A DNA stretch of 64,000 bases from a virus. Positions 45,059 through 64,000 of the stretch are shown piece by piece. The translations under genes were made by a program, and so were the position numbers. The notes under the pieces were generated by a model. It had not been told where the DNA came from and searched no databases. It saw only the letters and a program-made list of their open reading frames with translations. The stretch lies in IMG/VR virus record IMGVR_UViG_3300048579_000065; one strand, written 5' to 3'. The first letter of the stretch is position 1, and each line of letters begins with the position of its first letter.

Positions 45059-47799
45059 TAGTTACTATCCACCCTATCTAAGCCAGCCTTAACACCATCT
45101 GCTACTTTAGTTGTAAAAGAATCAAAGAAAGTAGACAAGGTTGTATTAATGTCCTTAAATGATATGTTTCCACCAAATTTATCAGCTATCTGATCAATCT
45201 GACCACCTATTCCCTTATCCTTAAATAAGTCAGACAAATCATTTTTTAATTTTTTATCTAACTCACCAGCAGAAATTTGATCAGGAAGTCCTTTTATATA
45301 CTCATCACTTCCATTAAAAAATCCTTGGAATTGGTTTTTATCTATCTTAGTATCCGGTGGAAGTTTTTGTACTAGTTCTCTTATTTTTGTATACTTTTCA
45401 ACACTGTCTGATACAGTATTAAATTTCGCCTTAGCAGCCTCAGCCTTAAGATCTCTAAATCCTGATTTTCCTTGTAGTTCCTGTAGCCTAGTTTGATCAT
45501 CAAATCTAAATGGATCAAGTTTGGATGATTCAGTTTCAAACTGTTTTTGTAAAATGGCCAATCTTCTATCCTTACCTTTTAGGTCATCTCCAACATCAAA
45601 ACTAGAAAAACCTCTGGCAAAGGAACCAGAAACATTTCCACCCAATTCTTTAATTTGAGCAGCTAAGCCAAATAGCTTATCAGTGCCTTGTAGTTGTTCT
45701 AATTCTCTTTGTTTAGTTAAATCATTCAAAGCAGACGATGCTTCATTTATTCTTAATGTAAAGGTTTCTGTAACTTCAGAAACCTTGGAGAAATGTACTC
45801 CAAGATCTATTAATGATGTGTAAAGTTTTGCTTCTGTGGTAAGTTGATTAGTTTTAGCTCCAATAACCGACTCTCCAAGTCTTTTTTGGAAAATCTCATC
45901 ACTTATACTTCCAGAAAGACTTTGTTTTCTTAGTCCTATAACATCACTAGCAAATCCTCCTAAGATAGTGTTTTTATCTACATTTTTAGATAATTTTTGT
46001 TCAATTATACTGTTTATGTCTAGTGGAGAGAGGTTTGGTTCAAAATTAAAGCCACTAAGGTTAGGTCCAGTAGATGCTTGGAATGGTGTTCTACTTCCAA
46101 ATGAGTTAGCAGCTCCACCTACTACAGTACCTACACCACTTCCTAAAAGACCTCCTACTAAAGCCCCTCCAGCTATACCTAATGGTCCTAATGGTGCTCC
46201 AGCAAAACCACCAGCTACTGCCCCACCTAAAGCTCCTACACCACCCCCGGCAACAGCTCCACTAACAATTTGGGGGTTCTTACCTAAAAACTCAGCAAGT
46301 TTAGCTCCTGCTTGTATAAAATAGTTAACCAATTCTCCAATCTGTTTACCTAAAACAGCAACAGCCTTTTGGAATTGAGGATTTGATAGTGAATTTGCTA
46401 ACTCATTTAATCCAGGAGCAAGAGCAGAAATGAATTTATCACCAAACTCTCTTTGTAGGTTTTCAAAGTCTGTATTAACTTTCCTTAATGCAATGCTTGC
46501 ATTGTTTGAGTTGCTAGCTAATCCATCAAGTATAGGTCCAATTTCTGAGAAGGCAGAAACAAAGGCCTCAGCATCCCCTGAAGCAATGGCTGACTTAATT
46601 TGAGCACCTGTCCTACTTCCTAGTAAAGACTTCGAAAGTTCATTATTAGTTTGTCCAGCTAAAAAGTCTTCCACATCATTAGCAAACCTTGATATATTTT
46701 TAATCAAGTCCTCATTAGTAAGAGATGTGAAGCCAGCAATTGGTTTCAATACTTTTAATATTTGACTTTCATTTAAGCTAATGCCAGCTCTTGAAGTACC
46801 TGCTACAATACCTCTAATGCCTGCTGATACTCCTTCAGTACCTACACCAAATGGTGATAGAGCGTTTGTTCCTTTTTGTACAAGACTTCTTGATCTTAGA
46901 TTCTGAACCTCAATAGCTGTACCAATATCTACTTGCTTACCTCCCAAGTCTACAACCTTAGATGTAGCCTGAAGTGAGATGGAGACATTATTTACAGCCT
47001 CCTGAAATCTTAAACCAGCTTTGGCAGCCTCTTCTAAGGCTCCTTCTACCTTCTTAAAAGCTTCAACTGCTGATCCTACTACAGCTTGTCCTACAGTTGC
47101 TCCACCATAGACACCAGGACTACCTAAGAATCCAGCACCAATAGCACCTCCAACTAGACCACCAACACCACCTACAGCACCTGAAATTGCCACCTCTCTA
47201 AATGCAGCAGGATTGAACACCCTACCTATATCAAAGGAAGACCTTCTTGTTCCCGGATTTACTGTTCCTGATTGTAATCCTTTGGATCTTTCAAACTGCC
47301 TAGCAGCCTCTTGTGGCCCGTTAATAAAAGTGCTAAGTAACTCCTTTTCATCAAACAGATCTTGATACTTCTCTTGTCTAAGTTGTAAGTTTTGAGAGTT
47401 GCGTTGGAGTCTAGCTTGTAATCTCCTGGCAGGAGTGAAAGGTCCAGCAGCTGGAGGACCAACAGGAGGGATATTAGATGCTTGTATACCTAATCCAGCA
47501 AACAAACTTGATATTTGATTATTTAAGGCTGATAGGTTACCAATAGAAACATTAATACTAATGTTACCAATAGCCTGAGCTATCTGCTGCCTAAGTTGAG
47601 TAATGCTACCAAGTCTAGGATTAATATCAACTGGAATACTGCCAATTGCTTGAGTTATTGTTTGTCTAATCTGAGTTGCATTAAAATTAGGTTGAATATT
47701 AAGTCTTACGTTAATATCCATACCATTTTGTTGCCAACCTTGCAACCTGTTATAGATTGCAGGATTAGTTAATCTGAGTGTAAGATCTACATTAGCCAT
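45058..47799 (-). CDS. tape measure protein
   Basis: 913 aa, helical and A/G-rich with Gly-rich hydrophobic segments; position in the tail module. Confidence 0.85.
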   Translation of the reverse strand: MANVDLTLRLTNPAIYNRLQGWQQNGMDINVRLNIQPNFNATQIRQTITQAIGSIPVDINPRLGSITQLRQQIAQAIGNISINVSIGNLSALNNQISSLFAGLGIQASNIPPVGPPAAGPFTPARRLQARLQRNSQNLQLRQEKYQDLFDEKELLSTFINGPQEAARQFERSKGLQSGTVNPGTRRSSFDIGRVFNPAAFREVAISGAVGGVGGLVGGAIGAGFLGSPGVYGGATVGQAVVGSAVEAFKKVEGALEEAAKAGLRFQEAVNNVSISLQATSKVVDLGGKQVDIGTAIEVQNLRSRSLVQKGTNALSPFGVGTEGVSAGIRGIVAGTSRAGISLNESQILKVLKPIAGFTSLTNEDLIKNISRFANDVEDFLAGQTNNELSKSLLGSRTGAQIKSAIASGDAEAFVSAFSEIGPILDGLASNSNNASIALRKVNTDFENLQREFGDKFISALAPGLNELANSLSNPQFQKAVAVLGKQIGELVNYFIQAGAKLAEFLGKNPQIVSGAVAGGGVGALGGAVAGGFAGAPLGPLGIAGGALVGGLLGSGVGTVVGGAANSFGSRTPFQASTGPNLSGFNFEPNLSPLDINSIIEQKLSKNVDKNTILGGFASDVIGLRKQSLSGSISDEIFQKRLGESVIGAKTNQLTTEAKLYTSLIDLGVHFSKVSEVTETFTLRINEASSALNDLTKQRELEQLQGTDKLFGLAAQIKELGGNVSGSFARGFSSFDVGDDLKGKDRRLAILQKQFETESSKLDPFRFDDQTRLQELQGKSGFRDLKAEAAKAKFNTVSDSVEKYTKIRELVQKLPPDTKIDKNQFQGFFNGSDEYIKGLPDQISAGELDKKLKNDLSDLFKDKGIGGQIDQIADKFGGNISFKDINTTLSTFFDSFTTKVADGVKAGLDRVDSN

Positions 47800-50215: not shown

Positions 50216-51235
50216 TTAATTCTCACGAATTACAGAGCTTACAGCATGGACACCTTGTAGCAAGGTATCAGCATTTACTGTTTCAAACACATAGGACAAG
50301 GTTGGAGGTTCTGATTTACCCCACTGGCTTGTACCACCTGTCTGATTCTGTCTAAGAGCAGCATACATGTAGAGTACTTCTACAGCTTTGTTTTGATTGA
50401 TGGGGAATAGTAGCTTAAGTGGCCAGTTACCTGTGTTGATTGCACCTGAAGCTTGATAAGCTCTAAGTGTAACTTCAGAGGTCTTTCCACCTGAGGTTGT
50501 GTATCTAACCCATTCACCAGCGCTGCTAGCAACGAAGTTTTGTGGATCATTTTGGAGAATCTTAAATGACACTTTAAGACCACGAGTTACAGCCAATTGA
50601 TAACTAGTAGCCGTTGCTGGCTTGTATTGGATCTGTTCAGTAGCATCCTCAAGAGCCAGACCTGGATCTTCCATAGTCCCAGCGCTAACAAAGGCTGTAC
50701 CAGTAATTCCAGTTCTCTTAGTCAACACAGAGTCTGTGATGGCTGAATTGGAAAGAGTAGAGTATGGCTCACTAATAGCATCTGTTTGTACATCAGTAAG
50801 AAGTACAGTACTCCAGATGGTTTGTGTGGAATCAGGAGGAAGAATTGAATGTAGGTAGAAGTTTCCACTATTCTTCTTAAGCCAAATCATAATACCAGCA
50901 GAATAGTCTACATCAGCAGGCCAAGAAATAGTATTAACTTCAATCCTAATGAATGGAAGCAAGGATGTAGGTTGCAGGAAGCCAGAGGCTGGAGAAGCAA
51001 CAGTAGCCGCAAATCCTTGACTTGTCGGATTATGTCCCATGGGCATCAAACAGACTTGATAAGTAGCAGTCTGGTCTAGTTGTCCACGTCTGTCATTGAT
51101 ATTAAAGAACTGCTGTTCTACTAAGACAGTTGAGGCTGATATTGACAGTGAAGCAAAACTAGGTATAGTTTTACTAGGAACCTCGTAGGGTATGTAAGGG
51201 AGCACCGCACCCGATCTATAGAACGTGGTTGACAT
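50216..51235 (-). CDS. major tail (tube) protein with N-terminal accessory domain
   Basis: C-half G.MEDPG..LE...E........V....KVSFKILQ; followed by strong terminators. Confidence 0.65.
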   Translation of the reverse strand: MSTTFYRSGAVLPYIPYEVPSKTIPSFASLSISASTVLVEQQFFNINDRRGQLDQTATYQVCLMPMGHNPTSQGFAATVASPASGFLQPTSLLPFIRIEVNTISWPADVDYSAGIMIWLKKNSGNFYLHSILPPDSTQTIWSTVLLTDVQTDAISEPYSTLSNSAITDSVLTKRTGITGTAFVSAGTMEDPGLALEDATEQIQYKPATATSYQLAVTRGLKVSFKILQNDPQNFVASSAGEWVRYTTSGGKTSEVTLRAYQASGAINTGNWPLKLLFPINQNKAVEVLYMYAALRQNQTGGTSQWGKSEPPTLSYVFETVNADTLLQGVHAVSSVIREN

Positions 51236-51294
51236 ACCTAGAAGTCTCCTAAGTTAAAACTTTATTTGGTTTACTTCCTAAGTTTATCTAAGAA

Positions 51295-51906
51295 TTAAAA
51301 TGGTACATGCTTCCACTGTTTTCCTTCAATAATCCTTGTGGCCGTTGTCCTACTTACATTAAACAATTCTCCTAACCTAGTTCTAGTAAACCCTCCAGTC
51401 TTAAACATCTTTCTCATTTCTATAACATCTTTCTCTGTAAGCTTAGAACAGGACACAGCACTACCAACAACCCTTCTACCTTTGTTAGCCATATCATCCA
51501 TATTGTCTTGGTGAGTGCCTAGAAACAGGTGCTCTGGATTACAGCATCTCATATTGTCACAATGATGACAAACAAACAAACCATCATTTATAGGACCATT
51601 AAATAAGATGTATGAGACTCTATAGGCCAGATCATCTTTTCCATCTAATGCTAATAATGAGCCACGTTTAGATTTTCCAGTCCAGTTCCAGCAACCCCTA
51701 TCATCCTTTACAGACTCATTTAATACCCTAGACTTGACATATTCAGGGCTAGACCTTCTAAACTTACCTCTACAAGATAAATTACAGAAGTGGTGTTTAT
51801 AGCCCTTCTTTAAGGCTTTCCTGTATAGCCCACCATTCTTCTTAAACTCCTTACCACAAGAGTCACAGATTAGCAAAAGTACTTCTTTCTTAGCACGTTT
51901 TCTCAT
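51295..51906 (-). CDS. HNH homing endonuclease (free-standing)
   Basis: CDSCGKEF; CWNWTG; VCHHCDN..CCNPEHLFLGT..DN. Confidence 0.85.
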   Translation of the reverse strand: MRKRAKKEVLLLICDSCGKEFKKNGGLYRKALKKGYKHHFCNLSCRGKFRRSSPEYVKSRVLNESVKDDRGCWNWTGKSKRGSLLALDGKDDLAYRVSYILFNGPINDGLFVCHHCDNMRCCNPEHLFLGTHQDNMDDMANKGRRVVGSAVSCSKLTEKDVIEMRKMFKTGGFTRTRLGELFNVSRTTATRIIEGKQWKHVPF

Positions 51907-51977
51907 TAAAGCTCTCCAGCAAATCCAACTTATCCTACAATACCAAAATGATGTTTTGGATAAGGGAAGTACTGGTT

Positions 51978-52568
51978 TTAGACAAATGTTAGATAATATG
52001 AGATATTGAATGTGGAGTAGCCAGCCGAGGCTATTGGTAGATAGGTACACTCAAACTGACATCTAAATGGTGATTGGTAGAAGCCGGAGGCTGTAGGAGG
52101 AATGATTAAATCAGCAAAGTCCACTGCTAAGCCCCCTCCAGTACGATTTTCTCTACATAGGTAGTCTAGTAAATAAGTTACACGATTTAGCACCTGATCT
52201 ACTAAGAATATGTTCTTATCAGTTACTACATTCTTTACTAAGATAGCTATTTTGGTAGTTCTAGCGCCAGTGATGTCTGATCTATTACCATTTCCTAGTG
52301 TAGCCGACTCATATAATTCCGTTGGCTGGATTACAATACAAGGTCCACTAGGAATTTGGGCCTGCCCATAGTCTGGGATCACTTTACTGGCAAGGTCTGA
52401 GCTAGCACAGCCTAGTAGTGTATACAAAGGTGTATATAAGAAAGGTGGGACATTAGAGCTACTAGCAAATACAGTAGTATTAGCATTGTAGATGTCTAAA
52501 GGATCTAACTGAATGCTATTAGCATCTAGGGCTAAATTGTATGCTATTACATCGCCTATAGTACTCAA
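51978..52568 (-). CDS. tail terminator-like neck protein
   Basis: synteny; PCIVIQP, VL..V..LLD. Confidence 0.5.
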   Translation of the reverse strand: MSTIGDVIAYNLALDANSIQLDPLDIYNANTTVFASSSNVPPFLYTPLYTLLGCASSDLASKVIPDYGQAQIPSGPCIVIQPTELYESATLGNGNRSDITGARTTKIAILVKNVVTDKNIFLVDQVLNRVTYLLDYLCRENRTGGGLAVDFADLIIPPTASGFYQSPFRCQFECTYLPIASAGYSTFNISYYLTFV

Positions 52569-53198
52569 TTACTGAATCTCCGACAGCTTAACAGTGAGTT
52601 CAGACATATTACCTACATCAGTAGATTGTTGGATGACCCATACTGTATTAGGATTATCTGTCTTATCATAGAATAGTAGCCCTTCAGTGTCATAGCCGGA
52701 GGTTCTTAAGTCTCTGGTATACATTATAATCTGATTAGTTGGAGTACCATCAGAGGCTAAAACCTTGTTGTGGATGGGTTTGTCACTGTAATTTACAGTC
52801 GTAGCATACTCAAAATATATGTTGTCATATAGTAAGGTTGAACCATTGTATATAGCCCCCAACCGGCTAGTCCTAAAAGCTGTCATCTCTTCAAAAGGAG
52901 ACTTGCTAATAAAGGTTAGTCTAGGAGTGTCAGAGTCAGCACGAAGAGGTAAGATAATGTCTCCTGGATTTATACCATCATACTCACCATGTACACAATA
53001 ATAAGAGGCATTAGGAAGTGGAGTCTGGACTAGGCTTGGTCCTCTTACTTCTGTCTTATATTTGCGCTGAGCATATTTTAACACTGGAGTCTGATCTTGT
53101 GCTGTGTAATCAACTGTTGAAATACTTACAGGTTGACCAAATATTAAGCCAAACCTTCTCTTTTCAAAGTTAAATCCCTTCTCATACATGTTAGGCAT
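52569..53198 (-). CDS. head closure or neck protein, putative
   Basis: synteny. Confidence 0.45.
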   Translation of the reverse strand: MPNMYEKGFNFEKRRFGLIFGQPVSISTVDYTAQDQTPVLKYAQRKYKTEVRGPSLVQTPLPNASYYCVHGEYDGINPGDIILPLRADSDTPRLTFISKSPFEEMTAFRTSRLGAIYNGSTLLYDNIYFEYATTVNYSDKPIHNKVLASDGTPTNQIIMYTRDLRTSGYDTEGLLFYDKTDNPNTVWVIQQSTDVGNMSELTVKLSEIQ

Positions 53199-53199
53199 A

Positions 53200-54150
53200 T
53201 TATTGACCTAAGAAGTATTGAGTCAGACTTGAGATTATATTTTCCCAAATTATGTTTCCCTCAAAGTATTCTATTGTGTAAGAACCACCTGATTGTCTCT
53301 TGACTCCTGGTAAGTATTGACCCTGGACAATTGGGATCACCTGAACTATACTATTTACAATATCTTGAGGTATGGTTCCAAAACCAGCAACATACACTAC
53401 TATAACATCATTGAAAGGTGAAAAGGGTTCAGGCCAGTCAACCATATTTTGTGCATACTTGTATACTAGCCAGCCGGTGTCCGGCTCCATATTATAGTTC
53501 TGTTTAACTGTACTGAAAGTTACAGCACTAAATAAGTTAAAGGCTATTGGTTGTCTTACTTGTGGAGAAAGGAAGTCAACTACAGGTGTCTTTTTGAGTC
53601 TTATACCATACTCCCATGAGAATGTCCCTTCCTGGAAATATGTACTGAGTACTATCTTATTATTAGTGAATCCTATTAGTTTAGCCGAGGCTAGTTCTAG
53701 TAGCTTAGCAACCTGTGCATTGGTAAGATCATTACCATTATTATCAGCCAGGTCTAACCCTGTTATTGTGGCTATCTCTCTACATTGGGGTACTGTAACT
53801 AATGTAGGATTGTTACCATTGTTGATAATATTGCCCATTGTTGAGCTAGCACTTAATACAAAAGAGCTTTGCCCCCATACACATATACAATGGTCGGTGC
53901 TAGTCACATTATATTGCTGTACTGATGGTAGGTCTACATAGTAGGGGGCTGAATTATTACTATAATCCATAGTAAGAGCTTGATTATTTTGTATTAGCCA
54001 GGTCAGTAGTTGTACAGCAGTCTTGTTGGCTAGTTCTTTCTCATCTTCTAGCCCGGTTAGACCTGATACAGCATATGTAAGAGCATTGCTAAAGGTTCTA
54101 TCATTGATCGTTACAGCAAGTCCACCACCTGAGCTAGCCCCTGGAGTCAT
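53200..54150 (-). CDS. head-tail connector (adaptor) protein with N-terminal extension
   Basis: LLELAS..LI.FT...; V.VVYVAGF.TIP.DI...IV. Confidence 0.65.
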   Translation of the reverse strand: MTPGASSGGGLAVTINDRTFSNALTYAVSGLTGLEDEKELANKTAVQLLTWLIQNNQALTMDYSNNSAPYYVDLPSVQQYNVTSTDHCICVWGQSSFVLSASSTMGNIINNGNNPTLVTVPQCREIATITGLDLADNNGNDLTNAQVAKLLELASAKLIGFTNNKIVLSTYFQEGTFSWEYGIRLKKTPVVDFLSPQVRQPIAFNLFSAVTFSTVKQNYNMEPDTGWLVYKYAQNMVDWPEPFSPFNDVIVVYVAGFGTIPQDIVNSIVQVIPIVQGQYLPGVKRQSGGSYTIEYFEGNIIWENIISSLTQYFLGQ

Positions 54151-54223
54151 AATGCTTAAATAATTTTGGGTATTGAAAATCAGGGAAGTCTAGACCTTTG
54201 GTTGCTAGCCTAATTTTACCTTC

Positions 54224-55014
54224 TTATACTAGGTTAAGTCTTTGCTGGCTAAGACTACAATACTCTTCTGACATGTCTATACCAATGTAGTTTCTTTGGT
54301 TCTTCTTAGCCATTTTTAATGTAGTTCCAGCCCCACACATTGGATCTAGCACAAGATCTCCTGGATTAGACCAACTTAATATATGATCCTCAGCTAATTT
54401 TTCAGGAAAGGTTGCCGGATGTATATAGCCCAAATTATCTGAATGATGTTTACCATATCCACAAGAGTATTCCCAAATATTAAATCTAAAGCCAAACTCC
54501 TTAATTACTCTACCCAATTGATTTCTTTCTGAACTGGTTTTAATTAGGCTACCATCCTTCTGTCTGCAAGTTGAGCCCTTTATAGGATTTCCTGTGTTTT
54601 TATTTTTTCTATCCTGTAAGGGATTGAAAGTTTTAGGACTTCCTTTGCTGAGGACAAACATGTACTCAAAAATATTGTAATACCGTGTTTTATCAGGATA
54701 TGGTGTGCTTAGTTTATTATAAATCATTGTGTCATGGAGGTTTAGCCCCAAATCCTTAAAATGCAGTGCTTGTCTAAAGCTTGTACCTGTCTCTGAGCCT
54801 TTGATTGTAGCATCACCTACTACCCAAACTATAACCCCCCCACCTTCAGGACTCTATAAAGCTCGGCTGCTATACCTTCAAAATCAAAAGAATAGCCTTT
54901 ATAGTCTCTAAGATTGTCATATGGGGGGCTAGTAACAACCAAATCAATAGACTTGTCATCAAAAGTCTTCATAACATCTATACAATTACCTTGAAGTACT
55001 TTATTAATTTCCAT
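54224..55014 (-). pseudogene. beta-class N4/N6 DNA methyltransferase split at a G7 run
   Basis: DLVVTSPPY in the 5' ORF; HPATFPE..A...I...SN.GD.VLDPMCG.GTT in the 3' ORF; adding one G at 54835-54841 gives LKVGGVIVWVVGDATIKGSETGTSF. Confidence 0.88.
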
Positions 55015-55877: not shown

Positions 55878-56963
55878 GTGTCAAGTACTTATGTAGTAGG
55901 AAAGCCAAAAATTGTTAATAAGGAATTATTCCTAAAAAGAGCTTCTGAGATTCTAGATTCAGGCTCTTGGGGTAATAACTCTACATATGTTTTAGCCCTT
56001 GAAGATTATATTAAAGAGTACTTAGGCTGTAAACATGTAATAGCTGTAAACTCAGCAACGACGGGGCTAGAATTAGCAATACAAACTCTTAAGGAGTTTG
56101 AGCTATTTGAGAATCCTACTTGTCTTATACCTTCCTTTACCTTCACTGCTACAGCATCAGCCTTAGTGAGAAATGGAATAAAGATTGAGTTTGGAGACAT
56201 TGATAATAATTTCTGCCTAAATAAGTCTAATACTGACAACATTACCGCTGACTTCTTTCTTCCAGTTAATCTGTTTGGAGAAACATGCCATCCTGATATA
56301 CAAGATGACAGCAGGAGTCTACTATTTGATCAGGCTCATTCAATTGGGGTCTTTAATGAAAGAACTGGTAAGTATTTAGGGGCTGACACTGAACTTAATT
56401 GTTTCAGTCTTCACTCAACTAAGATGGTTTCAGCCGGAGAGTGTGGCTTCATCACTACTTCTAGAGATGATTATGCTGAATATCTGAAAGAGCTTAGAAA
56501 CTTTGGCTATGACAGTAATTCAGGAGCTAGAGAAGGTGATGTTATTCACATAGGTACTAATGGTAAAATCTCTGAAATCACTGCTGCATTGGCACTTACC
56601 CAGCTTGAAAATATACAAGAGATTCAGGAACACTACTTTAATGTTCACCAAGAGTATGAAAGATTGTTACCAAACTTAATTAAGCAAAAGAATAATATGT
56701 TTAGTAACTGGTCTTATGTTGTTGTTCAGGTGGATGCTAGAAAAAGAGATAGTATTATTAGCAGAATGAACCAAGATGGTATTTTTCCTAGAACTTATTT
56801 TAAGCCTTTACATCACATGTCAGTATATAAAGAAAACATTAATCTTCCAATGACTAACAAAATAAGTTCTGAAATTATGTGTCTACCAACAGGTTTAACT
56901 ATTAGTTTAGAAGATGTGCAGTACATATCAAGGAGTTTAGCCAATGCAATCAAGGAAGGTTAA
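55878..56963 (+). CDS. DegT/DnrJ/EryC1/StrS PLP-dependent sugar aminotransferase
   Basis: VNSATTGL, PSFTF.AT, DQAHS.G, FSLHSTK (PLP Lys), GECG...T, GTNGKISE. Confidence 0.93.
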   Translation: MSSTYVVGKPKIVNKELFLKRASEILDSGSWGNNSTYVLALEDYIKEYLGCKHVIAVNSATTGLELAIQTLKEFELFENPTCLIPSFTFTATASALVRNGIKIEFGDIDNNFCLNKSNTDNITADFFLPVNLFGETCHPDIQDDSRSLLFDQAHSIGVFNERTGKYLGADTELNCFSLHSTKMVSAGECGFITTSRDDYAEYLKELRNFGYDSNSGAREGDVIHIGTNGKISEITAALALTQLENIQEIQEHYFNVHQEYERLLPNLIKQKNNMFSNWSYVVVQVDARKRDSIISRMNQDGIFPRTYFKPLHHMSVYKENINLPMTNKISSEIMCLPTGLTISLEDVQYISRSLANAIKEG

Positions 56964-57198
56964 TAAATCAGCTGAGGCAATGGAAGAGTCTCAAGATTTG
57001 GGGCTAGACCGGATGTCTGAATATGCTCAATGCATGAAAGTACTGATAGGCACTATTCATGATCTAAAGGAAGTAGGAGTTAGCCAATCGGTAGCTGTCA
57101 CTGTAGCTCAAGAGGCTATGGATTCTTTCCTCAACTATAGAGCTTTAATTGCTGCTCCACAAAGTTTGCTAGGCATGATAGAAGATGATCAGCATTAA
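56944..57198 (+). CDS. hypothetical protein
   Basis: co-oriented with the DegT gene. Confidence 0.5.
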   Translation: MQSRKVNKSAEAMEESQDLGLDRMSEYAQCMKVLIGTIHDLKEVGVSQSVAVTVAQEAMDSFLNYRALIAAPQSLLGMIEDDQH

Positions 57199-57377
57199 CG
57201 TAAAACCCTTAACTTAGCCTTCTCAAAATCATAGATCATAATTCTAATATTAGACAGGGCTAACATTAACTCTTCTATACTAGAATCATCATTACACATA
57301 TCTACTAGCGAGCCAATGTCTCTTAGTAGCTTTTTAGCAGCCCAAACTTCTTGGTAATCATTTCTTATGTTAGACAA
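57195..57377 (-). CDS. hypothetical protein
   Basis: ORF track. Confidence 0.5.
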   Translation of the reverse strand: MSNIRNDYQEVWAAKKLLRDIGSLVDMCNDDSSIEELMLALSNIRIMIYDFEKAKLRVLR

Positions 57378-57736
57378 TTTAGATCCTTTAATTCTTTGAT
57401 AACTTCATATTTCATCAAAGATACAAAATTCCCGCCACAATTCACATTATTATTTAATGTTGTTAAAAAACATATAAAGTAAATCTTCCTATTATGAAGC
57501 ACTACAAACCTTCTCTTATCTCCTGTAGGATCATCAACATAATTTACAAGGAAAACTCCATTATCATAATCATACAAAGTTTTAGGTTTTTGAGCCTTCT
57601 TTGCAGCTAAGAGCCTATTTAGACCTGCAATTTTATCCTCTAAATTAGCTATTTCATCTTCTAATGAAACCTTTTCTGGCTTAGCACTGCCAATAGACTC
57701 ATAGTAGCTTTCTGGACTATCTGTATCTCCATACAT
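57365..57736 (-). CDS. hypothetical protein
   Basis: ORF track. Confidence 0.55.
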   Translation of the reverse strand: MYGDTDSPESYYESIGSAKPEKVSLEDEIANLEDKIAGLNRLLAAKKAQKPKTLYDYDNGVFLVNYVDDPTGDKRRFVVLHNRKIYFICFLTTLNNNVNCGGNFVSLMKYEVIKELKDLNCLT

Positions 57737-58104
57737 TATTTATTCAATCTCCTTTCATCAGCAATACATTCTAACATAGCCATGGCTAGTTTTTCACTAG
57801 CATCCTTATAATCACAGTCAAAGGTTATAGCATGGTTGGCTATCTGAACAGTAAATAGTGGCCTGACTCCTGATGTAAACCTGACTATACCATTATGGTT
57901 CTTTCTAAACTTCTCTATAAGTTCAAAGGTTAGGTCTAGCCCGTCTGTATAATGCTTAGGAAACCAACCATTCTTGGCTTTCCATCTAGTAGTCTTAAAA
58001 CAAGCATGAAGTTTTAGCATGTCAGCCTTAATCTTACAAACCTTGAGGGCTAGATTAAGATTAAGTATGTTGAATCCTTTGGTTACTTTGTTCTTTATGC
58101 TCAA
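57736..58104 (-). CDS. hypothetical protein
   Basis: ORF track. Confidence 0.55.
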   Translation of the reverse strand: MSIKNKVTKGFNILNLNLALKVCKIKADMLKLHACFKTTRWKAKNGWFPKHYTDGLDLTFELIEKFRKNHNGIVRFTSGVRPLFTVQIANHAITFDCDYKDASEKLAMAMLECIADERRLNK

Positions 58105-58187
58105 TGTCTGCTACCTGTTCTTGTTTAGTTTGCTTTTGTTTAGAGTTTCCTCTAGGACCATCACCTGGCAGATAACCATTTAAGGTT

Positions 58188-58400
58188 TTAATCTTTCTCT
58201 TCTTTCTTTTGTGATTCATTTACTGCTTTCTCCACTTCATCTAGTGACCAACTACAATCATTTAGCGCGGCTGATAACACTATCTCACCAACTCTATCAG
58301 GATTGGTTCCTAGAGCCTTAGACATTATTACAAGCTTATCATACAATTTTTCATCAATATTAAGTACTAGCATTGCCATTCCATCCTCTATAGGTTCCAT
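58188..58400 (-). CDS. ribbon-helix-helix-like small protein
   Basis: LVLNIDEKLYDKL..MSKALG. Confidence 0.35.
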   Translation of the reverse strand: MEPIEDGMAMLVLNIDEKLYDKLVIMSKALGTNPDRVGEIVLSAALNDCSWSLDEVEKAVNESQKKEEKD

Positions 58401-58409
58401 AATTACTCC

Positions 58410-59003
58410 TTATTTGATTGCATCTACATAAAATGAAAACTTAGTTCTAACAGGGTCCATACTATCAATAGAAGGATCAGGCCAAGACTTGTTTACTTGG
58501 CTAAACCCAACAAACTTGGCTATAGCTTCAAACTTATCTTGATCCCAATTACTCTTATGTTCGTTACAAGGCTCAGGATCATATTGATAGTTAGACCATT
58601 CTACAATATCAATGAAAGTTCTGTATCTAGCATCTGAGAAGTCATTCCAATTGAATATCTCATAGAACTTCCAATCTTTCTCTACATAAGCTCTATAGAG
58701 TTGAAAGAAGTCAGGCAGGCAAACTCTAAATACTCCTCCTGGAACCATTTTGCTAAAGCATTCCTGCATTAGTTTAATAGCATCGGGGGTCTTTATGTGC
58801 TCCAAAACATGAGATGAATATACATAAGATATATTTTCTACTTGTTCTGGTAAACCATTCTTAACAAAATCCCACATTAAATATTCTTCCTTATCTTGTA
58901 AGTCAAGAATATCAAGGTTTAGGAAGCCTTCCTTAAGTTGTGTGTGGCAACCTAAGTGTACTTTATTCCATCTTCTATTTAAGTCTGTCATTATCCCTCT
59001 CAT
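58410..59003 (-). CDS. class I SAM-dependent methyltransferase (glycan-cluster type)
   Basis: VHLGC....EGFLNLD, YSSHVLEHI, M.PGG.FRV.LPD. Confidence 0.85.
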   Translation of the reverse strand: MRGIMTDLNRRWNKVHLGCHTQLKEGFLNLDILDLQDKEEYLMWDFVKNGLPEQVENISYVYSSHVLEHIKTPDAIKLMQECFSKMVPGGVFRVCLPDFFQLYRAYVEKDWKFYEIFNWNDFSDARYRTFIDIVEWSNYQYDPEPCNEHKSNWDQDKFEAIAKFVGFSQVNKSWPDPSIDSMDPVRTKFSFYVDAIK

Positions 59004-59181
59004 CTATTATCTCATACTTACAAGTCTTATCATCTAGCGCGTCAAAGTCTTCAGGATGTATTAGCACATGACCAAAGGCATGTGAAACTGCTCCTTTAGT
59101 AGCCTTTTCAGTAACAAGTATTGCTCTTATTCCTATACCACAATCATTATAGGATTTAATTATGTCTTGTAGTTTAGTCAT
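58975..59181 (-). CDS. hypothetical protein
   Basis: ORF track. Confidence 0.5.
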   Translation of the reverse strand: MTKLQDIIKSYNDCGIGIRAILVTEKATKGAVSHAFGHVLIHPEDFDALDDKTCKYEIIDERDNDRLK

Positions 59182-59773
59182 CTTTCTTTACTGGTTTATC
59201 CAAGTGTTTAAGTGCTTGTAGTGTATCTTTCCATAATCCAGCCGGGGCTAGCTCTGGATCTACCCATATCCTCCAATCTTCACCATCATGTGTAGTTATG
59301 ACCCATTCTCCATAACAATTCTTAGCAATCTCACTTCCATTGTGGAATCTACTTAATATGTCTCCAATCTGCTCCAGTCTAGATTGCTTATCTGATTTAA
59401 GTCTTTTAATCTCAGCCCTGAGTTTTAAGATCTCTCCATGCTGAGCCTTCCTAATTAGTTTACCACGTTCATAATAGTGTCTAATCTTAAATAGTAAATC
59501 TCTAGTCTCAAAGTAAAGACCTCTATAAAAATCACTGTAATTTAATGTGTGCTTTCTACTTAGTCCACCATTACTATACAAGCATTTTATGGCATTTGCT
59601 ACACCATGATAATAACTACCTTTTCTATCCTTACACCAACCATGTTTAGGATCACCTATATAAAAATAACCATGAGTTTTCTTTACAAGCTTTGCTAATT
59701 CCTCAGCCTCATCATTAGTAATTTTTTGAGGTTTAGGCTTGAACTTATTTAACAGGTTATCAAGTATTGTCAT
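59174..59773 (-). CDS. hypothetical protein
   Basis: ORF track. Confidence 0.6.
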   Translation of the reverse strand: MTILDNLLNKFKPKPQKITNDEAEELAKLVKKTHGYFYIGDPKHGWCKDRKGSYYHGVANAIKCLYSNGGLSRKHTLNYSDFYRGLYFETRDLLFKIRHYYERGKLIRKAQHGEILKLRAEIKRLKSDKQSRLEQIGDILSRFHNGSEIAKNCYGEWVITTHDGEDWRIWVDPELAPAGLWKDTLQALKHLDKPVKKDD

Positions 59774-60036
59774 GAGATTACATCCATTAATTCAGTGAAT
59801 TGCTTATTTTGGCTAGTAATGAAATCAACAATAGCACCTCTAGTATCTGAGTTCATAATAAACTTACCATTTAAGGTTTCAATTCTATACCTTGACCAAA
59901 GTGCAGCAATTGAGAAATTAAAACCTCTAAACTCTATTCTACCTAAACAGTATGTAGGATCTGATCCTGATTTAAGAGACATTTCCCATCTCTTATCCAA
60001 TTCACTAAGTACATTATCTAGTGTGTTATATTCCAT
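59770..60036 (-). CDS. hypothetical protein
   Basis: ORF track. Confidence 0.55.
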   Translation of the reverse strand: MEYNTLDNVLSELDKRWEMSLKSGSDPTYCLGRIEFRGFNFSIAALWSRYRIETLNGKFIMNSDTRGAIVDFITSQNKQFTELMDVIS

Positions 60037-60364
60037 TTATTACCTCAGCAGCATCATCACATAAACCATTTGTAATAACCATACACTTTCTACAATACCT
60101 AGCTGGCCATGACATATGATCAAGGTGTATTGTTAATGGCCTACCTGTTCCATACATTATAACCTCTTCACCATCAATGTCAATTGGATTAGGGCAGAAA
60201 CAAGTAAATCTTTCAGGAGTTTTCTTACTTAGAATGCCATTTTTCCAGTGAGCCTCTTCCTCAGTTTTAACAATTAAAGGAAATACTGAGCCTCCTGTAC
60301 CATCATAGTATAGATAGCCAATTATTTCATCTCCTACTTTAGCTTTGGCTATTTCCCAACTCAC
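60026..60364 (-). CDS. hypothetical protein
   Basis: YDGT pattern; CFC and CRKC. Confidence 0.55.
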   Translation of the reverse strand: MSWEIAKAKVGDEIIGYLYYDGTGGSVFPLIVKTEEEAHWKNGILSKKTPERFTCFCPNPIDIDGEEVIMYGTGRPLTIHLDHMSWPARYCRKCMVITNGLCDDAAEVINGI

Positions 60365-61163
60365 TTGTTAAGTACTCCCTCTTACATCCATTTGCTATCC
60401 ATTCCTTTACTAGCTGGTCAAGTCTTACAGACTCTTCTCTATTCTTATTGTTAATTCCTACAGAGTCTCTGTAGACTGAAAGTGACTCATTCATCCAACC
60501 TATCTTAGCTCCATTATAACACAAGTAGGCAAAGAGAGGGTGATCACCTAGATAAGAAAATTTCTTACTAAATTCTAGCGGGCTAGGAGCCTTTCTTATC
60601 AAATCTGCCTTACATAGAAAGCTACAAGTATAAATTGTGTTCATCTCCATAAGTCTTTGAACAGTTACAATTTTCTCCTGCCAACACGTTTTACTCCAAG
60701 CTTCCTTAATATAAGTACCATCAGGAAGTATGCAATCTACATCACCATGTACACCATCCAAGTTGTTTTCCTCGATAAATTCAAGACTTTTAGCCAGCTT
60801 GCCAGGCTTATAGTAGTCATCAGGTTCAAGGATAGTTATATACTGTCCTGTAGCCATTGATAGTGCTAAACTCATGCTAGCAGGGCCACCTAAATTCTCA
60901 GAATTTATATGAATCTTAAAGTTATTATTCTTGGCAAAGTACTTATCATTCCTTTCATAATCATGATCCCATCTCATGCTCCATAAGAAATTGGCTGTGC
61001 TATAAGACTCTCTTTCAGTCTTCTCATCTATTACTAGACAAACCTCTATGTCATACTTGTCAGTATCTAGACTGTCAAATTGACACATAATACCTTCATA
61101 CCAATCCTTAAGGTACTTAGTTTGATTGTGAGTAGCTGAGCAAATTGAGATTAACTCTTTCAT
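60339..61163 (-). CDS. GT-A (GT2) glycosyltransferase
   Basis: ISIC.AT.N..KYL, NLG......AL..ATG.YI..LEPDD. Confidence 0.85.
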   Translation of the reverse strand: MKELISICSATHNQTKYLKDWYEGIMCQFDSLDTDKYDIEVCLVIDEKTERESYSTANFLWSMRWDHDYERNDKYFAKNNNFKIHINSENLGGPASMSLALSMATGQYITILEPDDYYKPGKLAKSLEFIEENNLDGVHGDVDCILPDGTYIKEAWSKTCWQEKIVTVQRLMEMNTIYTCSFLCKADLIRKAPSPLEFSKKFSYLGDHPLFAYLCYNGAKIGWMNESLSVYRDSVGINNKNREESVRLDQLVKEWIANGCKREYLTSELGNSQS

Positions 61164-61399
61164 TTCTCACCAAGGAATATTTTAACTTGATTCAGCAAAG
61201 ATCTCATTTCAACACACTTATTGTCATATCTCTGCTTCCATTTAGTGGCTGTAGCCTCCTCACTTCTCTTATCCACCTCACCCCTACAGTTTTTACAAAC
61301 AAAGAACATACCACAACTACCTTTTCTCACAAGATCATCAACTTGTGATCTAAGTTTGTTATTTTCTTCCATTAACTTTAATTCATCTTGAGTATACAT
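61160..61399 (-). CDS. hypothetical protein
   Basis: ORF track. Confidence 0.5.
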   Translation of the reverse strand: MYTQDELKLMEENNKLRSQVDDLVRKGSCGMFFVCKNCRGEVDKRSEEATATKWKQRYDNKCVEMRSLLNQVKIFLGEK

Positions 61400-61403
61400 T
61401 AGG

Positions 61404-61730
61404 CTAAACTACTACCTCAGTTAAGCCAGTTTCCTTATAAAACTTAATCCTTTCCTTCTCATCAGTATCATTAATTTGATTTTGATTTCTAAATGAAACT
61501 TCCATACTGTGGTAGCTACCACTATGATTAATTTCTGGTTTTCTGAAAACAAAGCCTTCAGCAGCATTACCAAACAGATCCTCTGCTTTAATATAATCTC
61601 CCTTCTTAAGGAAGTTTAGATCAAAGTTCTTAAGCTTAATCATACTACTTTGTTGCCAAATATAGAAAGCTTCAGCCAAAACATTATGTTCTACACCATC
61701 ATGTGTAACTTTCATTTCAAATTCACTCAT
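61404..61730 (-). CDS. hypothetical protein
   Basis: ORF track. Confidence 0.5.
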   Translation of the reverse strand: MSEFEMKVTHDGVEHNVLAEAFYIWQQSSMIKLKNFDLNFLKKGDYIKAEDLFGNAAEGFVFRKPEINHSGSYHSMEVSFRNQNQINDTDEKERIKFYKETGLTEVVV

Positions 61731-61732
61731 TT

Positions 61733-62503
61733 TTAATATCCTCTCTTCATGTCAATATACAGTCTTTCATTTAATGCTGGAACTGAACTATAACCTAGTA
61801 TAGCACGTTCTTTGGCTGAAAGATCCTTATAAATTTCTTTAGGTAAAGCTTCTGTTATCTGGAAAGCTTGTTTAATCCACCATCTACAGAATGTTGCTAT
61901 AATACTCCATCTAGATTTTTCAGTCTTATTTGCTAAGGTTCCATGGATTAGTGAGCCTGTCCACATAATGACATCTCCTGCATTAGCTTCTACAGCTACC
62001 ATAGGCTCTGTACCATCAGCATACTTGCCTTTAAGATGACTTCCAGGGCTAACAACAGTACAACCATTATCTAGTGTAGAATCTTCAAGGAAGATAGCAA
62101 CCTGCATAGTCAGGAACTCTTTATCAGAAGGATAAGGTACAAAGCTATCAATATGGTTAGGTAAGGCAGTAGGGCCAGTAGACCTAGCTGAATATGAACG
62201 TAAAATATAATTAGGTAGATAGTCAGGAATTGCAGCATAGTACTTATCATTAAGGAAATACTTTAATATTTCTTCTACAGCTTGAGACTTAAATAGCATT
62301 TGTGTGAACCATCTATCCTTAGACTCAAGATTGTAGATGTTCCTGGCTATCCTGTTAAGCCTTGGTATTGTTAGATCATCAGGGCTAGGCAATCCAGGAT
62401 CTAAAGACTTAATCATCTCAAGAGTCTTGGCCACTTCATCCTTAGAGTAAACATTCCATAGTTTACAATAACCATTTATTTGTAATGATTCAATAGGTGT
62501 CAT
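61733..62503 (-). CDS. PhyH-family 2OG-Fe(II) dioxygenase
   Basis: HID, IFLED....NGCT...PGSH, AGDV..W.G..IHG, distal Arg. Confidence 0.88.
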   Translation of the reverse strand: MTPIESLQINGYCKLWNVYSKDEVAKTLEMIKSLDPGLPSPDDLTIPRLNRIARNIYNLESKDRWFTQMLFKSQAVEEILKYFLNDKYYAAIPDYLPNYILRSYSARSTGPTALPNHIDSFVPYPSDKEFLTMQVAIFLEDSTLDNGCTVVSPGSHLKGKYADGTEPMVAVEANAGDVIMWTGSLIHGTLANKTEKSRWSIIATFCRWWIKQAFQITEALPKEIYKDLSAKERAILGYSSVPALNERLYIDMKRGY

Positions 62504-62504
62504 T

Positions 62505-63350
62505 TTACTCCTTCCACGTTTTTACAAGAAGAATATTTCTTATTGTAACATCAGTTACATTATAAATCCTTGCTATGTGGGTAAAGTTATCATTACTAGT
62601 ATACTTAGATCTTATTTCATTAATTTGTGCATCAGATAATTTTGCATTACAATTTCTATTACGCTTGTGCTCTAATTGTCTTGGTAAACCATCCCACTCA
62701 GTTTTGATATGTGACCATGTTTCACAATATACTGCTTTTAACATTGTTGCATGAGATACATTATACTTCTTGGATAAGGAGTTAATGCTACTTAAGTCTT
62801 TGAAATGCTCCTTTCTGCAACTCTTTACTATCTCATCTGTAAGCTTGGCACCGGACATGCTCTCACCCTTAACTGGATTATGTCTATTTTTAGATAACAT
62901 ATCTTGTACATTATCTTGATGAGTACCTAGAAAAAGATGCTCAACATCAACACATACCTTATTGTCACATTTGTGACAAACCAATAACCCATTAGGTATA
63001 TAACCATTTTTTAGTGTCCAAGAATACCTGTGTGCCCACCATAACTTCCTGTCTACAAATACTTGTCCATAACCACTATGATGAACCTTTCCCTGCCACT
63101 CCAAGCAACCATTTTCCACATTCCTTACTGTTGATCTAAAAAATTGTTCTTCAGTTATTGTTTTTGATTTATAAGAACATTTTGTACTACAGAAGATTCT
63201 TCCTGTTGAATTTTTTCTTCTAAACATCCTATCATTATAATAAGATGTTGTTGCTAAAAATGGTTCTCTACATTGAAAACAATGTACTAAAACTGCTCGT
63301 TTCTTTCTATTTCTTTTATTTTTACTTTTAGGATCAAATTTAACTTTCAA
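62505..63350 (-). CDS. HNH homing endonuclease (free-standing)
   Basis: CLEWQG...SGYG, AHRYSW, VCHKCDN..CV...HLFLGT..DN. Confidence 0.88.
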   Translation of the reverse strand: MKVKFDPKSKNKRNRKKRAVLVHCFQCREPFLATTSYYNDRMFRRKNSTGRIFCSTKCSYKSKTITEEQFFRSTVRNVENGCLEWQGKVHHSGYGQVFVDRKLWWAHRYSWTLKNGYIPNGLLVCHKCDNKVCVDVEHLFLGTHQDNVQDMLSKNRHNPVKGESMSGAKLTDEIVKSCRKEHFKDLSSINSLSKKYNVSHATMLKAVYCETWSHIKTEWDGLPRQLEHKRNRNCNAKLSDAQINEIRSKYTSNDNFTHIARIYNVTDVTIRNILLVKTWKE

Positions 63351-63999
63351 CTAATACATACTCCATATTGCTTGGTTTTGGATTAAATACAAAATTACTA
63401 TTACCATTCTTATAATCTCTGTATTCTGGATCAAAGTATTTACTTTCTGGATATGAAAGTGACCATGCACAATGAAACAATTCAAGCTCCCTAATCTTAA
63501 CTGCTCCTCCCCTACCCCTTGCTAAATCCATTATACCAGAATCTAATGAGTTTCGAGATGTTCCATGGTATGTAAAGAAAAACTCTGTATTAAGAACCAT
63601 ACCCCAGATACCAAAGTTACAATCTTCTGAGCTAAAGCCCCTTCCAGCTGGAAGATAATTTTCCATTGAAAGATTAAATCCAGTAACAACCCAGCCCTTT
63701 TTGTGGTATTCCCTAGAAAGTGCTATCCAATCTCCATTTTCAGGGATTATTAAATCACAATCGCTCATACAGAATAGTTTGGTTTTAGGTCTAAAGTCTT
63801 CTATAGACTTCATTAAACAGTAGCCAAAACCGTTCTCCTTAAACTCTAACATCCTCTTAACTAAGCCTAATCTAATAAGCCTCCTTACATACTTCCTTAT
63901 TTCAGTTGTTCCAGAATTAGGCAAAGTATCATTTGGGCTAACAAAGGTTATCTCTATAGGCTCACTAGCTGTTCTAATAAACGAGTTAAGTGAGTCTCT
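63340..63999 (-). CDS. GT-A-like glycosyltransferase, 5'-partial
   Basis: frame open to the window edge (DSLNSFIRTASEPIEITFVS); SDCD DxD motif; late H in LFHCAW. Confidence 0.5.
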   Translation of the reverse strand, partial: RDSLNSFIRTASEPIEITFVSPNDTLPNSGTTEIRKYVRRLIRLGLVKRMLEFKENGFGYCLMKSIEDFRPKTKLFCMSDCDLIIPENGDWIALSREYHKKGWVVTGFNLSMENYLPAGRGFSSEDCNFGIWGMVLNTEFFFTYHGTSRNSLDSGIMDLARGRGGAVKIRELELFHCAWSLSYPESKYFDPEYRDYKNGNSNFVFNPKPSNMEYVLVES

Positions 64000-64000
64000 T

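Follow-up and report, generated by a model that had tools for sequence, protein, structure and literature searches.

A conserved glycosylation cassette between the head and neck/tail genes of undescribed wastewater phages, predicted to use a viosamine-like sugar

The 64,000-nucleotide stretch of IMG/VR virus record IMGVR_UViG_3300048579_000065 that we analysed (hereafter the window) ends in 8 kb of DNA (positions 55,878 to 64,000) encoding a DegT/DnrJ/EryC1-family sugar aminotransferase dependent on pyridoxal phosphate (PLP), an S-adenosylmethionine (SAM) methyltransferase, a family-2 glycosyltransferase (GT2), a PhyH-family Fe(II)/2-oxoglutarate (2OG) dioxygenase and most of a second glycosyltransferase (GT) of GT-A fold. 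Sequence comparisons support the reading of these genes as one conserved phage glycosylation cassette, arranged around an amino-deoxysugar that the DegT enzyme is predicted to make. We propose a model whereby the cassette, lying between the head and the neck/tail genes, would be fed by the host and use a viosamine-like sugar, with a protein of the phage particle as the likeliest acceptor. We judge this fuller model to have an even chance of being correct.

Results

The same enzymes recur together beside the same structural genes

Relatives were found through homologues of the PhyH enzyme, the GT-A enzyme and a flanking protein of 316 amino acids (aa), and those compared were L001 (41.7 kb), L005/L006 (108.9 kb), L014 (51 kb) and a contig from ENA (35 kb). 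Identities to the window, which ranged from 25 to 56%, were measured for L001, L005 and L014 only; the ENA contig was judged from its Pfam and open reading frame (ORF) listing. All four relatives contained DegT, methyltransferase and GT2 genes, and a GT-A homologue was recognisable in L001, L005 and L014. At the place of the GT-A gene the ENA contig has a 227-aa ORF that has no Pfam match. In each case the cassette lay immediately upstream of the same four-gene block, with the DegT gene on the opposite strand and adjoining the homologue of the 316-aa protein. Compared with L014, the cassette enzymes (37–56% identity) were as well conserved as the neck/tail proteins (36–51%). In L005, a gene for an SU10-type major capsid protein was present 6 kb upstream of the cassette.

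The grouping extends beyond these lineages. A more distant phage, L007/L008, which encodes a sigma factor, a ribonucleotide reductase and a Cas4-like nuclease, kept the trio of GT-A, Methyltransf_11 and DegT genes. There the trio is part of a larger cluster that also has additional GTs and methyltransferases as well as two genes of dehydratase/epimerase families. In L001, L005 and the ENA contig a hexapeptide acyltransferase (Hexapep) gene lay upstream of the GT genes, between two proteins of about 300 aa annotated with no function, and L015 also carried one. No such gene occurs within the window; since its place would fall beyond base 64000, the window probably does not reach the end of the cassette.

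Two of the families are also joined physically. The GT-A family members P0101, P0159 and, weakly, P0133 have a C-terminal methyltransferase domain, and in P0101 and P0159 this domain is homologous to the window methyltransferase (E 1e-15 and 8e-14, respectively). P0101 itself sits in a compact operon of GT2, GT-A::methyltransferase, DegT and Hexapep genes. The methyltransferase is the predicted functional partner of the GT-A enzyme. Homologues of it were present in L001, L005, L014, L007 and L010, and N29, D31, H65, E68, H69, G89 and G90 were invariant in an alignment of the family. Its Pfam match is weak (Methyltransf_23, 20 bits, under the cutoff), and its fold and family are supported by the Atlas feature score (Table 1) together with a TM of 0.86 to Methyltransf_11 clusters. 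Methyltransferase domains that are fused to GT2 or GT41 enzymes are among its structural neighbours.

Might these genes instead be unrelated accessory pickups that piled up in a variable region between two structural modules? The region is certainly mosaic, in that lineages and strains differ in their HNH genes, DNA methylases and small ORFs and in the order of the genes. However, the same four or five enzyme families stand together in five lineages, despite identities as low as those given above, and again in L007/L008 and L015, and two of them are fused in one polypeptide elsewhere. Given the co-occurrence, the synteny and the gene fusion, independent pickup is very unlikely, and we regard this explanation, already largely refuted, as the least probable of all those weighed here. 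The first-pass annotation had proposed that the genes form a single kit, a proposal borne out by their syntenic recurrence in at least four other lineages and by the fusion. Moreover, the cassette shares the GC content of the genome (36.7% over the window) and its extreme depletion of CpG (observed/expected 0.21 over positions 1–64000 and 0.13 over 55.9–64 kb), and is therefore not a recent import. Avoidance of host restriction and host dinucleotide bias are candidate causes of the depletion.

An intact DesI-like aminotransferase

The DegT protein matched PF01041 with 190.6 bits (cutoff 19.8), residues 16–354 being covered. Its best match in the PDB was DesI (2po3; E 3e-34), with which both the PLP-binding lysine (S-T-K motif) and the aspartate of the F-D-x-A-H motif, which touches the pyridine nitrogen, aligned, and both residues are intact. 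The best NCBIfam model was likewise that of DesI (TIGR04427), at 179.4 bits against an equivalog cutoff of 650, so that the protein is not a member of that family. By sequence it is nearest to the DesI-type aminotransferases, which act at position 4 of nucleoside diphosphate (NDP)-4-keto-6-deoxyhexoses. The gene runs antiparallel to the rest of the cassette; homologues of 40–50% identity have the same place and orientation in L001, L005 and L014, and the Pfam listing of the ENA contig has a DegT gene at the corresponding place.

The second-best PDB match was glutamine:scyllo-inositol transaminase, and KanJ-like PhyH-family enzymes and methyltransferases tailor aminoglycosides. Both points would suit a set of genes that makes a soluble aminoglycoside-like, or other glycosylated, small molecule. 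We consider such a product very improbable, since the best DegT matches are NDP-sugar enzymes, we found an inosose synthase, a cyclase or another scaffold enzyme neither in the window nor in the relatives, and the cassette keeps its place beside morphogenesis genes.

Two soluble glycosyltransferases, one resembling Mimivirus L138

The GT2 protein scored 53.9 bits against PF00535 (cutoff 23.3), and its DD motif aligned with that of a solved GT2. Its homologues in L001, L005 and L014 were 25, 27 and 56% identical, respectively. The ORF at the very end of the window had no match in Pfam, PHROG or NCBIfam and is thus not a PF00535 member by sequence. It was 29–50% identical to proteins of 218–237 aa in L001, L005 and L014, and the complete 218-aa L001 homologue (32% identical) gave an AlphaFold2 (AF2) model with a pLDDT of 90.6. 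In Foldseek searches of the PDB this model matched TarS, TarP, SpsA and ArnC (prob 1.0), and D94 and D96 of the DxD motif were invariant in eight family sequences, including that of the window. As modelled through its L001 homologue, the ORF is a GT-A-fold glycosyltransferase. Its top matches in BFVD were an unnamed 490-aa viral protein and Mimivirus L138 (query TM-score, TMq, 0.79–0.80; E about 1e-11), all other matches having a TMq of at most 0.68 and E of 6e-6 or worse. Against reviewed cellular proteins there was generic GT2 similarity only. A profile search of 1.84 billion cluster representatives returned 164 matches, 49 of them below 1e-30. Transmembrane segments were sought in all the cassette enzymes and found in none.

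These results, and those on the PhyH enzyme below, uphold the assignments made in the first-pass annotation, namely the DegT-type aminotransferase (from 55878), the SAM methyltransferase (58410), the GT2 (60339), the PhyH-type 2OG-Fe(II) dioxygenase (61733) and a partial GT-A (63340 onwards). It had also counted in a GT-B at 2626 and a GT-A at 10791. Both are genuine glycosyltransferases, the latter a GT2 (Table 1), but they lie 45–60 kb away in the early region and no link of either to the cassette was found, and we rejected them as shown parts of it.

As a separate observation, a DUF7666 gene directly precedes the early GT2 gene (10072–11663 for the two, plus strand), and in the ENA relative a DUF7666 gene lies within the glycosylation cassette region, which is a possible link between the early GT2 and the cassette.

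The PhyH enzyme is probably an optional decoration

The PhyH protein scored 92.9 bits against PF05721 (cutoff 22), and its H117-x-D119...H187 triad was invariant among 12 homologues. It was present in three of the five lineages, namely the window and, in two copies each, L001 and L014. No PhyH gene was found in the L005 and ENA loci, although the DegT, methyltransferase and GT genes are kept there. A PhyH-made hydroxyl can therefore not be a general requirement of the GTs. The idea that they attach a sugar to such a hydroxyl, put forward as a possibility on first inspection of the sequence, is thus not supported, and the bacterial relatives of the enzyme, in polysaccharide loci next to formyl- and acyltransferases, also speak against it.

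Indeed, homologues of 45–59% identity occurred in phage glycan islands and in bacterial polysaccharide loci. The large phage islands that carry them also encode GT1, GT2, several methyltransferases, WbqC, Hexapep and a second PhyH. In Rhodobacterales, homologues of 45–50% identity form PhyH-PhyH pairs followed by a FemAB-like acyltransferase and a sugar-type formyltransferase. The sole NCBIfam match of the window protein, a weak one, was 'sporadic carbohydrate cluster 2OG-Fe(II) oxygenase'. Its best PDB matches were fungal meroterpenoid oxygenases (SptF, E 6e-8), followed by weak matches to SnoN (5ep9) and to 4xaa ('Putative oxygenase'), with E from 3e-4 to 4e-3. In the literature on PhyH enzymes of O-antigen or phage glycan clusters we found no characterised member of the subfamily. 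We take the enzyme to be, probably, an optional tailoring enzyme that hydroxylates the sugar or an N-acyl substituent, and not the maker of the acceptor hydroxyl.

The Rhodobacterales four-gene sets (L002, 10001–13378; L004, 1331–4833) look like an uncharacterised amino-sugar tailoring module. The acyltransferase-sized gene is FemAB-like by Pfam in L002 and has no Pfam match in L004. In one genome the set adjoins genes for making and exporting polysaccharide; the neighbours of the L004 set are YjbF/YjbH, a PglF/CapD-like dehydratase and an initiating sugar transferase.

DNA is disfavoured as the acceptor

A dioxygenase next to glycosyltransferases raises the question of whether the cassette hypermodifies phage DNA, the hydroxyl coming from PhyH, from another oxygenase or from a hydroxymethyl pyrimidine made elsewhere, and the GTs adding the amino-sugar as a protection against restriction. 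Phage GTs do glycosylate DNA containing 5-hydroxymethylcytosine (5hmC) or 5-hydroxycytosine (5hoC) (PMC13326640; bioRxiv 10.1101/2023.12.21.572611). The window, L013, L014 and the ENA contig all have DNA methylase genes within or next to the cassette region, where L014 also encodes a weakly matching AlkB-like 2OG oxygenase, and 48 kb of the contig to which the window belongs lies outside the window. However, no TET/JBP enzyme, ThyA-like hydroxymethylase, 5hoC synthase or C5-cytosine methylase was present among the approximately 70 window ORFs scanned. The only methylases in the window are of the N6_N4 and Dam types, and its sole 2OG enzyme is PhyH. The Pfam scans thus agree with the initial impression that TET/JBP, hydroxymethylase and NDP-sugar dehydratase genes are missing from the window. 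PhyH, moreover, falls outside the 5mYOX enzymes, and the bacterial proteins closest to it come from polysaccharide loci. Two lineages keep their GTs and have no PhyH, and the adjacent N6_N4 methylase is frameshifted here and missing in a strain variant. Furthermore, the nearest viral fold of the GT-A enzyme is a protein of the Mimivirus fibril-glycan cluster. Taken together, DNA is disfavoured as the target, and we think this use of the cassette improbable. A more specific version, in which a methylated and optionally hydroxylated amino-deoxysugar would go to phage DNA, with the methylases and the 2OG oxygenases (PhyH and the AlkB-like protein of L014) readying the acceptor, we hold to be a shade less probable again. 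If true, it would be a new, amino-sugar class of DNA hypermodification, independent of TET/JBP or ThyA-like enzymes.

A proposed pathway ending on the phage particle

We found no nucleotidyltransferase, 4,6-dehydratase or epimerase (Epimerase/GDP_Man_Dehyd families) in the 64 kb, nor any of these in the L001, L005, L014 and ENA loci; more distant islands carry such genes. From this absence in the window and in the loci of close relatives we infer that the host would supply an NDP-4-keto-6-deoxyhexose, for example the RmlA/RmlB intermediate. The DesI-like DegT enzyme would aminate this keto-sugar to an NDP-4-amino-4,6-dideoxyhexose (viosamine-like), which the hexapeptide acyltransferase of the relatives, encoded here perhaps just past the window end, could then N-acylate. 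The L138-like GT-A and the GT2, both soluble, would move this sugar and a second one onto a cytoplasmic acceptor, and the partner methyltransferase would methylate the sugar. PhyH, in the phages that have it, would add an optional hydroxyl to the sugar or to its N-acyl group. The acceptor would most likely be a protein of the phage particle, as with the fibrils of Mimivirus and the capsid and tail tube of mycobacteriophages. The identity of the sugar, the order of the steps, the precursor supply and the acceptor are all deduced. A particle protein is favoured by the solubility of the enzymes, by the absence of accompanying export or flippase genes, by the fixed position of the cassette between capsid and neck/tail genes, and by the example of the giant viruses; we offer it as our best guess.

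The same enzymes could conceivably remodel a glycan of the host envelope during infection, be it lipopolysaccharide/O-antigen, capsule, teichoic acid or a surface glycoprotein. Phage GTs are known from the literature to alter host serotype, and the nearest solved folds of the GT-A enzyme include the wall-teichoic-acid enzymes TarS and TarP as well as lipid-carrier enzymes. Bacterial polysaccharide loci contain members of the PhyH subfamily and gene sets comparable to this one, and the internal sigma70-like promoters described below would fit expression ahead of the late genes. Nevertheless, a flippase, a polymerase, a GtrA-like protein or any other membrane component is absent from the cassette, the window and the relatives' loci, and none of the enzymes contains a transmembrane segment. 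As a rule it is prophages that convert serotype, and no integrase or other lysogeny gene was seen in the 64 kb. The fixed place beside neck/tail genes in five lineages would also be left unexplained. We therefore rate envelope remodelling as unlikely, if well worth bearing in mind. The same doubtful standing attaches to its possible benefit, which would be to block superinfection or to keep progeny off debris, with the soluble GTs acting on lipid-linked or polymer intermediates at the inner membrane face.

Several points weigh against a particle protein as the acceptor, or against the pathway that leads to it. Strong sigma70-like promoters lie on the minus strand at 60183 and 55884 and none on the minus strand of the tail region (our promoter statements use only the count of matches of at least 11/12 to a sigma70-like pattern), so that the cassette may be expressed before the virion genes. 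The region between the two modules also gathers DNA methylases, HNH genes and other accessory genes, and for this reason the position of the cassette may reflect an insertion hotspot, not function. The Atlas leads for the flanking block are weak (0.84 for head completion protein and 0.83 for tail tube). For its 339-aa protein, the AF2 model built from a three-sequence alignment has a pLDDT of 42. Within the cassette, the glycine loop of methyltransferase motif I reads LGCH where relatives have LGCG, which makes the SAM-binding loop degenerate, and the DegT score, being far under the DesI cutoff, does not establish regiochemistry or stereochemistry. The scans covered the 64-kb window, the other 48 kb of the 112-kb contig lying outside them. 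Finally, the acceptor is argued solely from gene position, soluble enzymes and analogy, and the whole model is read from sequence.

A previously undescribed phage clade

The window is a portion of a tailed phage, and its own PhyH protein is borne on a contig of 112,224 bp. Megablast of the region against 50,697 phage records gave no match, and the phage thus has no close cultured relative. Tblastn of the GT-A homologue, the PhyH protein and the 339-aa protein against the same records also found nothing, and DegT matched at no more than 29% identity. Searches for related loci in IMG/VR with DegT, PhyH and P0071 returned no locus, and an alignment search with PhyH returned four viral contigs only, which belong to different phages with larger glycan islands. 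Identical or near-identical strain DNA was present in wastewater metagenomes of several studies. The clade is one of wastewater phages of roughly 110 kb, previously undescribed and without a cultured relative.

From position 1 to about 36 kb the window holds early-type genes, among them those for SNF2 and UvrD helicases, a GHKL ATPase, Thg1, a PNKP-type phosphatase and a Dam methylase, and near-consensus sigma70 promoters are numerous there. Tail genes, including that of the tape measure protein, follow on the minus strand from 36 to 54 kb, and the cassette occupies 55.9–64 kb (Table 1).

Table 1. Positions of the cassette genes and of other features discussed in the text
Feature	Position	Strand	Support or remark
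DegT/DnrJ/EryC1-family PLP sugar aminotransferase, 361 aa	55878..56963	+	PF01041 E 6e-56
Probable class I SAM methyltransferase (Methyltransf_11 type), 197 aa	58410..59003	-	Atlas 0.97; phrog_6636 E 3e-7
199-aa protein, Lys/Arg- and Glu-rich, between GT2 and methyltransferase	59174..59773	-	40% identical homologue at the same place in L014
88-aa ORF downstream of GT2	59770..60036	-	58% identity to L014 3770-4057
Soluble family-2 (GT-A fold) glycosyltransferase GT2, 274 aa	60339..61163	-	PF00535 E 2.6e-14
PhyH-family Fe(II)/2OG dioxygenase, 256 aa	61733..62503	-	PF05721 E 4e-26
HNH (HNH_3) homing endonuclease at the GT-A/PhyH junction	62505..63350	-	PF13392 E 2.6e-13; phrog_1872 E 1.5e-29
GT-A-fold glycosyltransferase (as modelled), small family without a Pfam model	63340..64000	-	about 18 N-terminal residues cut by the window end
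Flanking four-gene block (316, 209, 196 and 339 aa; HNH gene at 51295-52050 between)	50216..54150	-	always after DegT
Tape measure gene	45058-47799		phrog_1533 E 2e-6
Distant GT-B	2626-4008		PF13524 30.7 bits; phrog_7162 E 9e-17
Distant GT2	10791-11663		PF00535 24.3 bits; phrog_2456 E 4e-12

Genes within and beside the cassette

The four-gene block next to DegT probably comprises genes of the neck and the tail tube, beyond which comes the tape measure gene. PHROGs gave no match for the 316-, 209- and 339-aa proteins, nor for eight further neck/tail proteins. The 339-aa protein (50216–51235, minus strand) is 91% identical to its L013 homologue, as against 43–83% for the neighbouring proteins, and 21% of its residues are serine or threonine. 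It fits an abundant structural subunit, with tail tube as a weak lead, and would as such be a candidate substrate for glycosylation.

We also observed that the L005 protein encoded after the SU10-type capsid gene (4316–5560, 414 aa) holds two copies of one domain, which occurs once in a 213-aa window protein (29090–29731, minus strand) at 30–38% identity to the L005 copies.

Between the GT2 and methyltransferase genes lies the 199-aa protein, which had no match in Pfam, PHROG or NCBIfam and no detected homologue in L001 or L005. As its conservation is limited to L014, we do not count it among the core members; it is possibly an accessory one. In L014 the gap between GT2 and methyltransferase holds a gene (4054–4575) for a 173-aa AlkB-like 2OG-Fe(II) oxygenase (PF13532, 27.5 bits, under the cutoff) that has no counterpart in the window.

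The HNH gene at the GT-A/PhyH junction, which the first-pass annotation did not name, is a mobile insertion and stands outside the pathway. A second HNH_3 gene (51295–52050, minus strand) lies at the junction of the genes for the 196- and 339-aa proteins. At that junction L014 has an unrelated-looking HNH gene of 390 aa on the other strand; L013 has none there and one further downstream.

Strain variation was examined by comparing contigs of four wastewater runs over 54–64 kb; contigs show presence and not absence, and hence reveal alternative forms only. The enzyme genes were retained in these variants, part of DegT being a divergent allele. Three runs diverged exactly at 62505, and no contig covered 62684–63685. 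Beyond 62505 the HNH-free form continues with what reads as a GT-A C-terminus, whose TGA overlaps the ATG of PhyH (ATGA), so that the two genes are translationally coupled when the endonuclease is missing. The contig of run X3 skips 59772–60376 and with it the 88-aa ORF, a 112-aa ORF and a perfect sigma70-like promoter. This site (TTGACA-16-TATAAT, 60156–60183, minus strand) is located inside the 112-aa ORF and precedes the 88-aa ORF. Two other small ORFs also vary among the wastewater strains. A generic scan for promoters and terminators over 54–64 kb did not rise above chance.

The N6_N4-type DNA methylase gene beside the cassette (54224–55014, minus strand) is frameshifted into a 61-aa piece with the SPPY motif (54829–55014) and a 175-aa remainder (54224–54751), and intact versions of 253 and 257 aa are present in L013 and L014. 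The frameshift could mark a pseudogene, a sequencing error or a programmed shift. In one wastewater strain 37 bases stand in place of 54182–55014. Frameshifted here and absent there, the methylase is evidently dispensable.

Discussion

Virus-encoded glycosylation is well documented in giant viruses and a few actinobacteriophages, and hardly in other tailed phages. The present cassette is compact and recurs beside neck/tail genes: its members are DegT, a GT2 and an L138-like GT-A with a partner methyltransferase, to which some lineages add an acyltransferase, PhyH or both. It brings to light a GT-A family of about 220 aa that is linked to a methyltransferase by fusion and to Mimivirus L138 by fold, as well as a PhyH subfamily of phage and bacterial glycan loci that has no characterised member. 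If the cassette does sugar-coat the particle, phage stability, host recognition and immune recognition could all be affected; were DNA the acceptor, a new route of hypermodification would follow.

The closest characterised analogue is the viosamine cluster of Mimivirus (APMV), which comprises the 4,6-dehydratase R141, the aminotransferase L136, the acetyltransferase N-L142, the methyltransferase R132 and the putative GTs L137, L138, R139, L140 and C-L142, and places 2-O-methyl-N-acetyl-viosamine on the virion fibrils (PMC9614988). The phage likewise has a PLP aminotransferase, a SAM methyltransferase and several GTs within 8 kb, with an N-acyltransferase in its relatives, and L138 is the best viral structural match of its GT-A after an unnamed protein (TMq 0.80, E 2e-11). 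It differs in being a tailed phage, in the lack of an R141-like dehydratase in the 64 kb, in the addition of PhyH, and in that its system is known from genes alone. Its DegT is also closer to bacterial DesI, L136 not being among the PDB matches at E of 1e-20 or below.

With DesI of Streptomyces venezuelae, a dTDP-4-keto-6-deoxy-D-glucose 4-aminotransferase, the phage DegT aligns end to end, but at so low an identity neither the nucleotide nor the position or stereochemistry can be assigned. The ant operon for anthrose encodes an aminotransferase of the DegT family along with an acyltransferase, a GT2 and a methyltransferase; the hydroxyl of anthrose is introduced by a hydratase that acts on the acyl-CoA. 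Anthrose is 2-O-methyl-4-N-(3-hydroxy-3-methylbutanoyl)-viosamine and is carried by the spore glycoprotein BclA of Bacillus anthracis (PMC9614988). It thus provides a chemical precedent for a product of DegT, methyltransferase, acyltransferase and hydroxylase on a surface protein, although the candidate hydroxylase here is a 2OG dioxygenase and not an acyl-CoA hydratase. PhyH-fold oxygenases also tailor sugars in antibiotic pathways, as in KanJ, SnoK/SnoN and the AviO1/EvdO/HygX group. Like them the phage enzyme may act on a sugar, and SnoN is among its weak matches.

DNA glycosylation is represented by 5hoC arabinosylation in RB69 and DLP3 (PMC13326640) and by systems that combine a C5-methylase, TET/5mYOX and a GT (bioRxiv 10.1101/2023.12.21.572611). 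These, and the alpha- and beta-GTs of T4 that act on 5hmC, have phage GTs in common with the cassette, and one class also has a 2OG dioxygenase. However, the known DNA systems need a ThyA-like enzyme or a C5-methylase with TET/JBP, none of which is in the window, and PhyH is a different 2OG family.

Among tailed phages the nearest comparison is with mycobacteriophages. Freeman et al., writing in Cell Host Microbe in 2023, are said to have shown that these phages glycosylate their virions, and to our knowledge their systems use GTs with host sugars and include no DegT or PhyH. A further difference is that the GT-A, PhyH and 339-aa proteins had no tblastn match in the 50,697 phage records. Capsid and tail-tube subunits of mycobacteriophages are described as glycosylated by the GTs of the phages themselves (PMC12619734). 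The present cassette, whose glycosylating role is predicted, similarly adjoins morphogenesis genes. Sugar cassettes of phages and viruses are already a known kind. What is new here is the composition of the cassette and its fixed position in an undescribed clade, together with a small L138-like GT-A family that has no Pfam model and is found fused to a methyltransferase, and a PhyH subfamily shared by phage and bacterial glycan loci.

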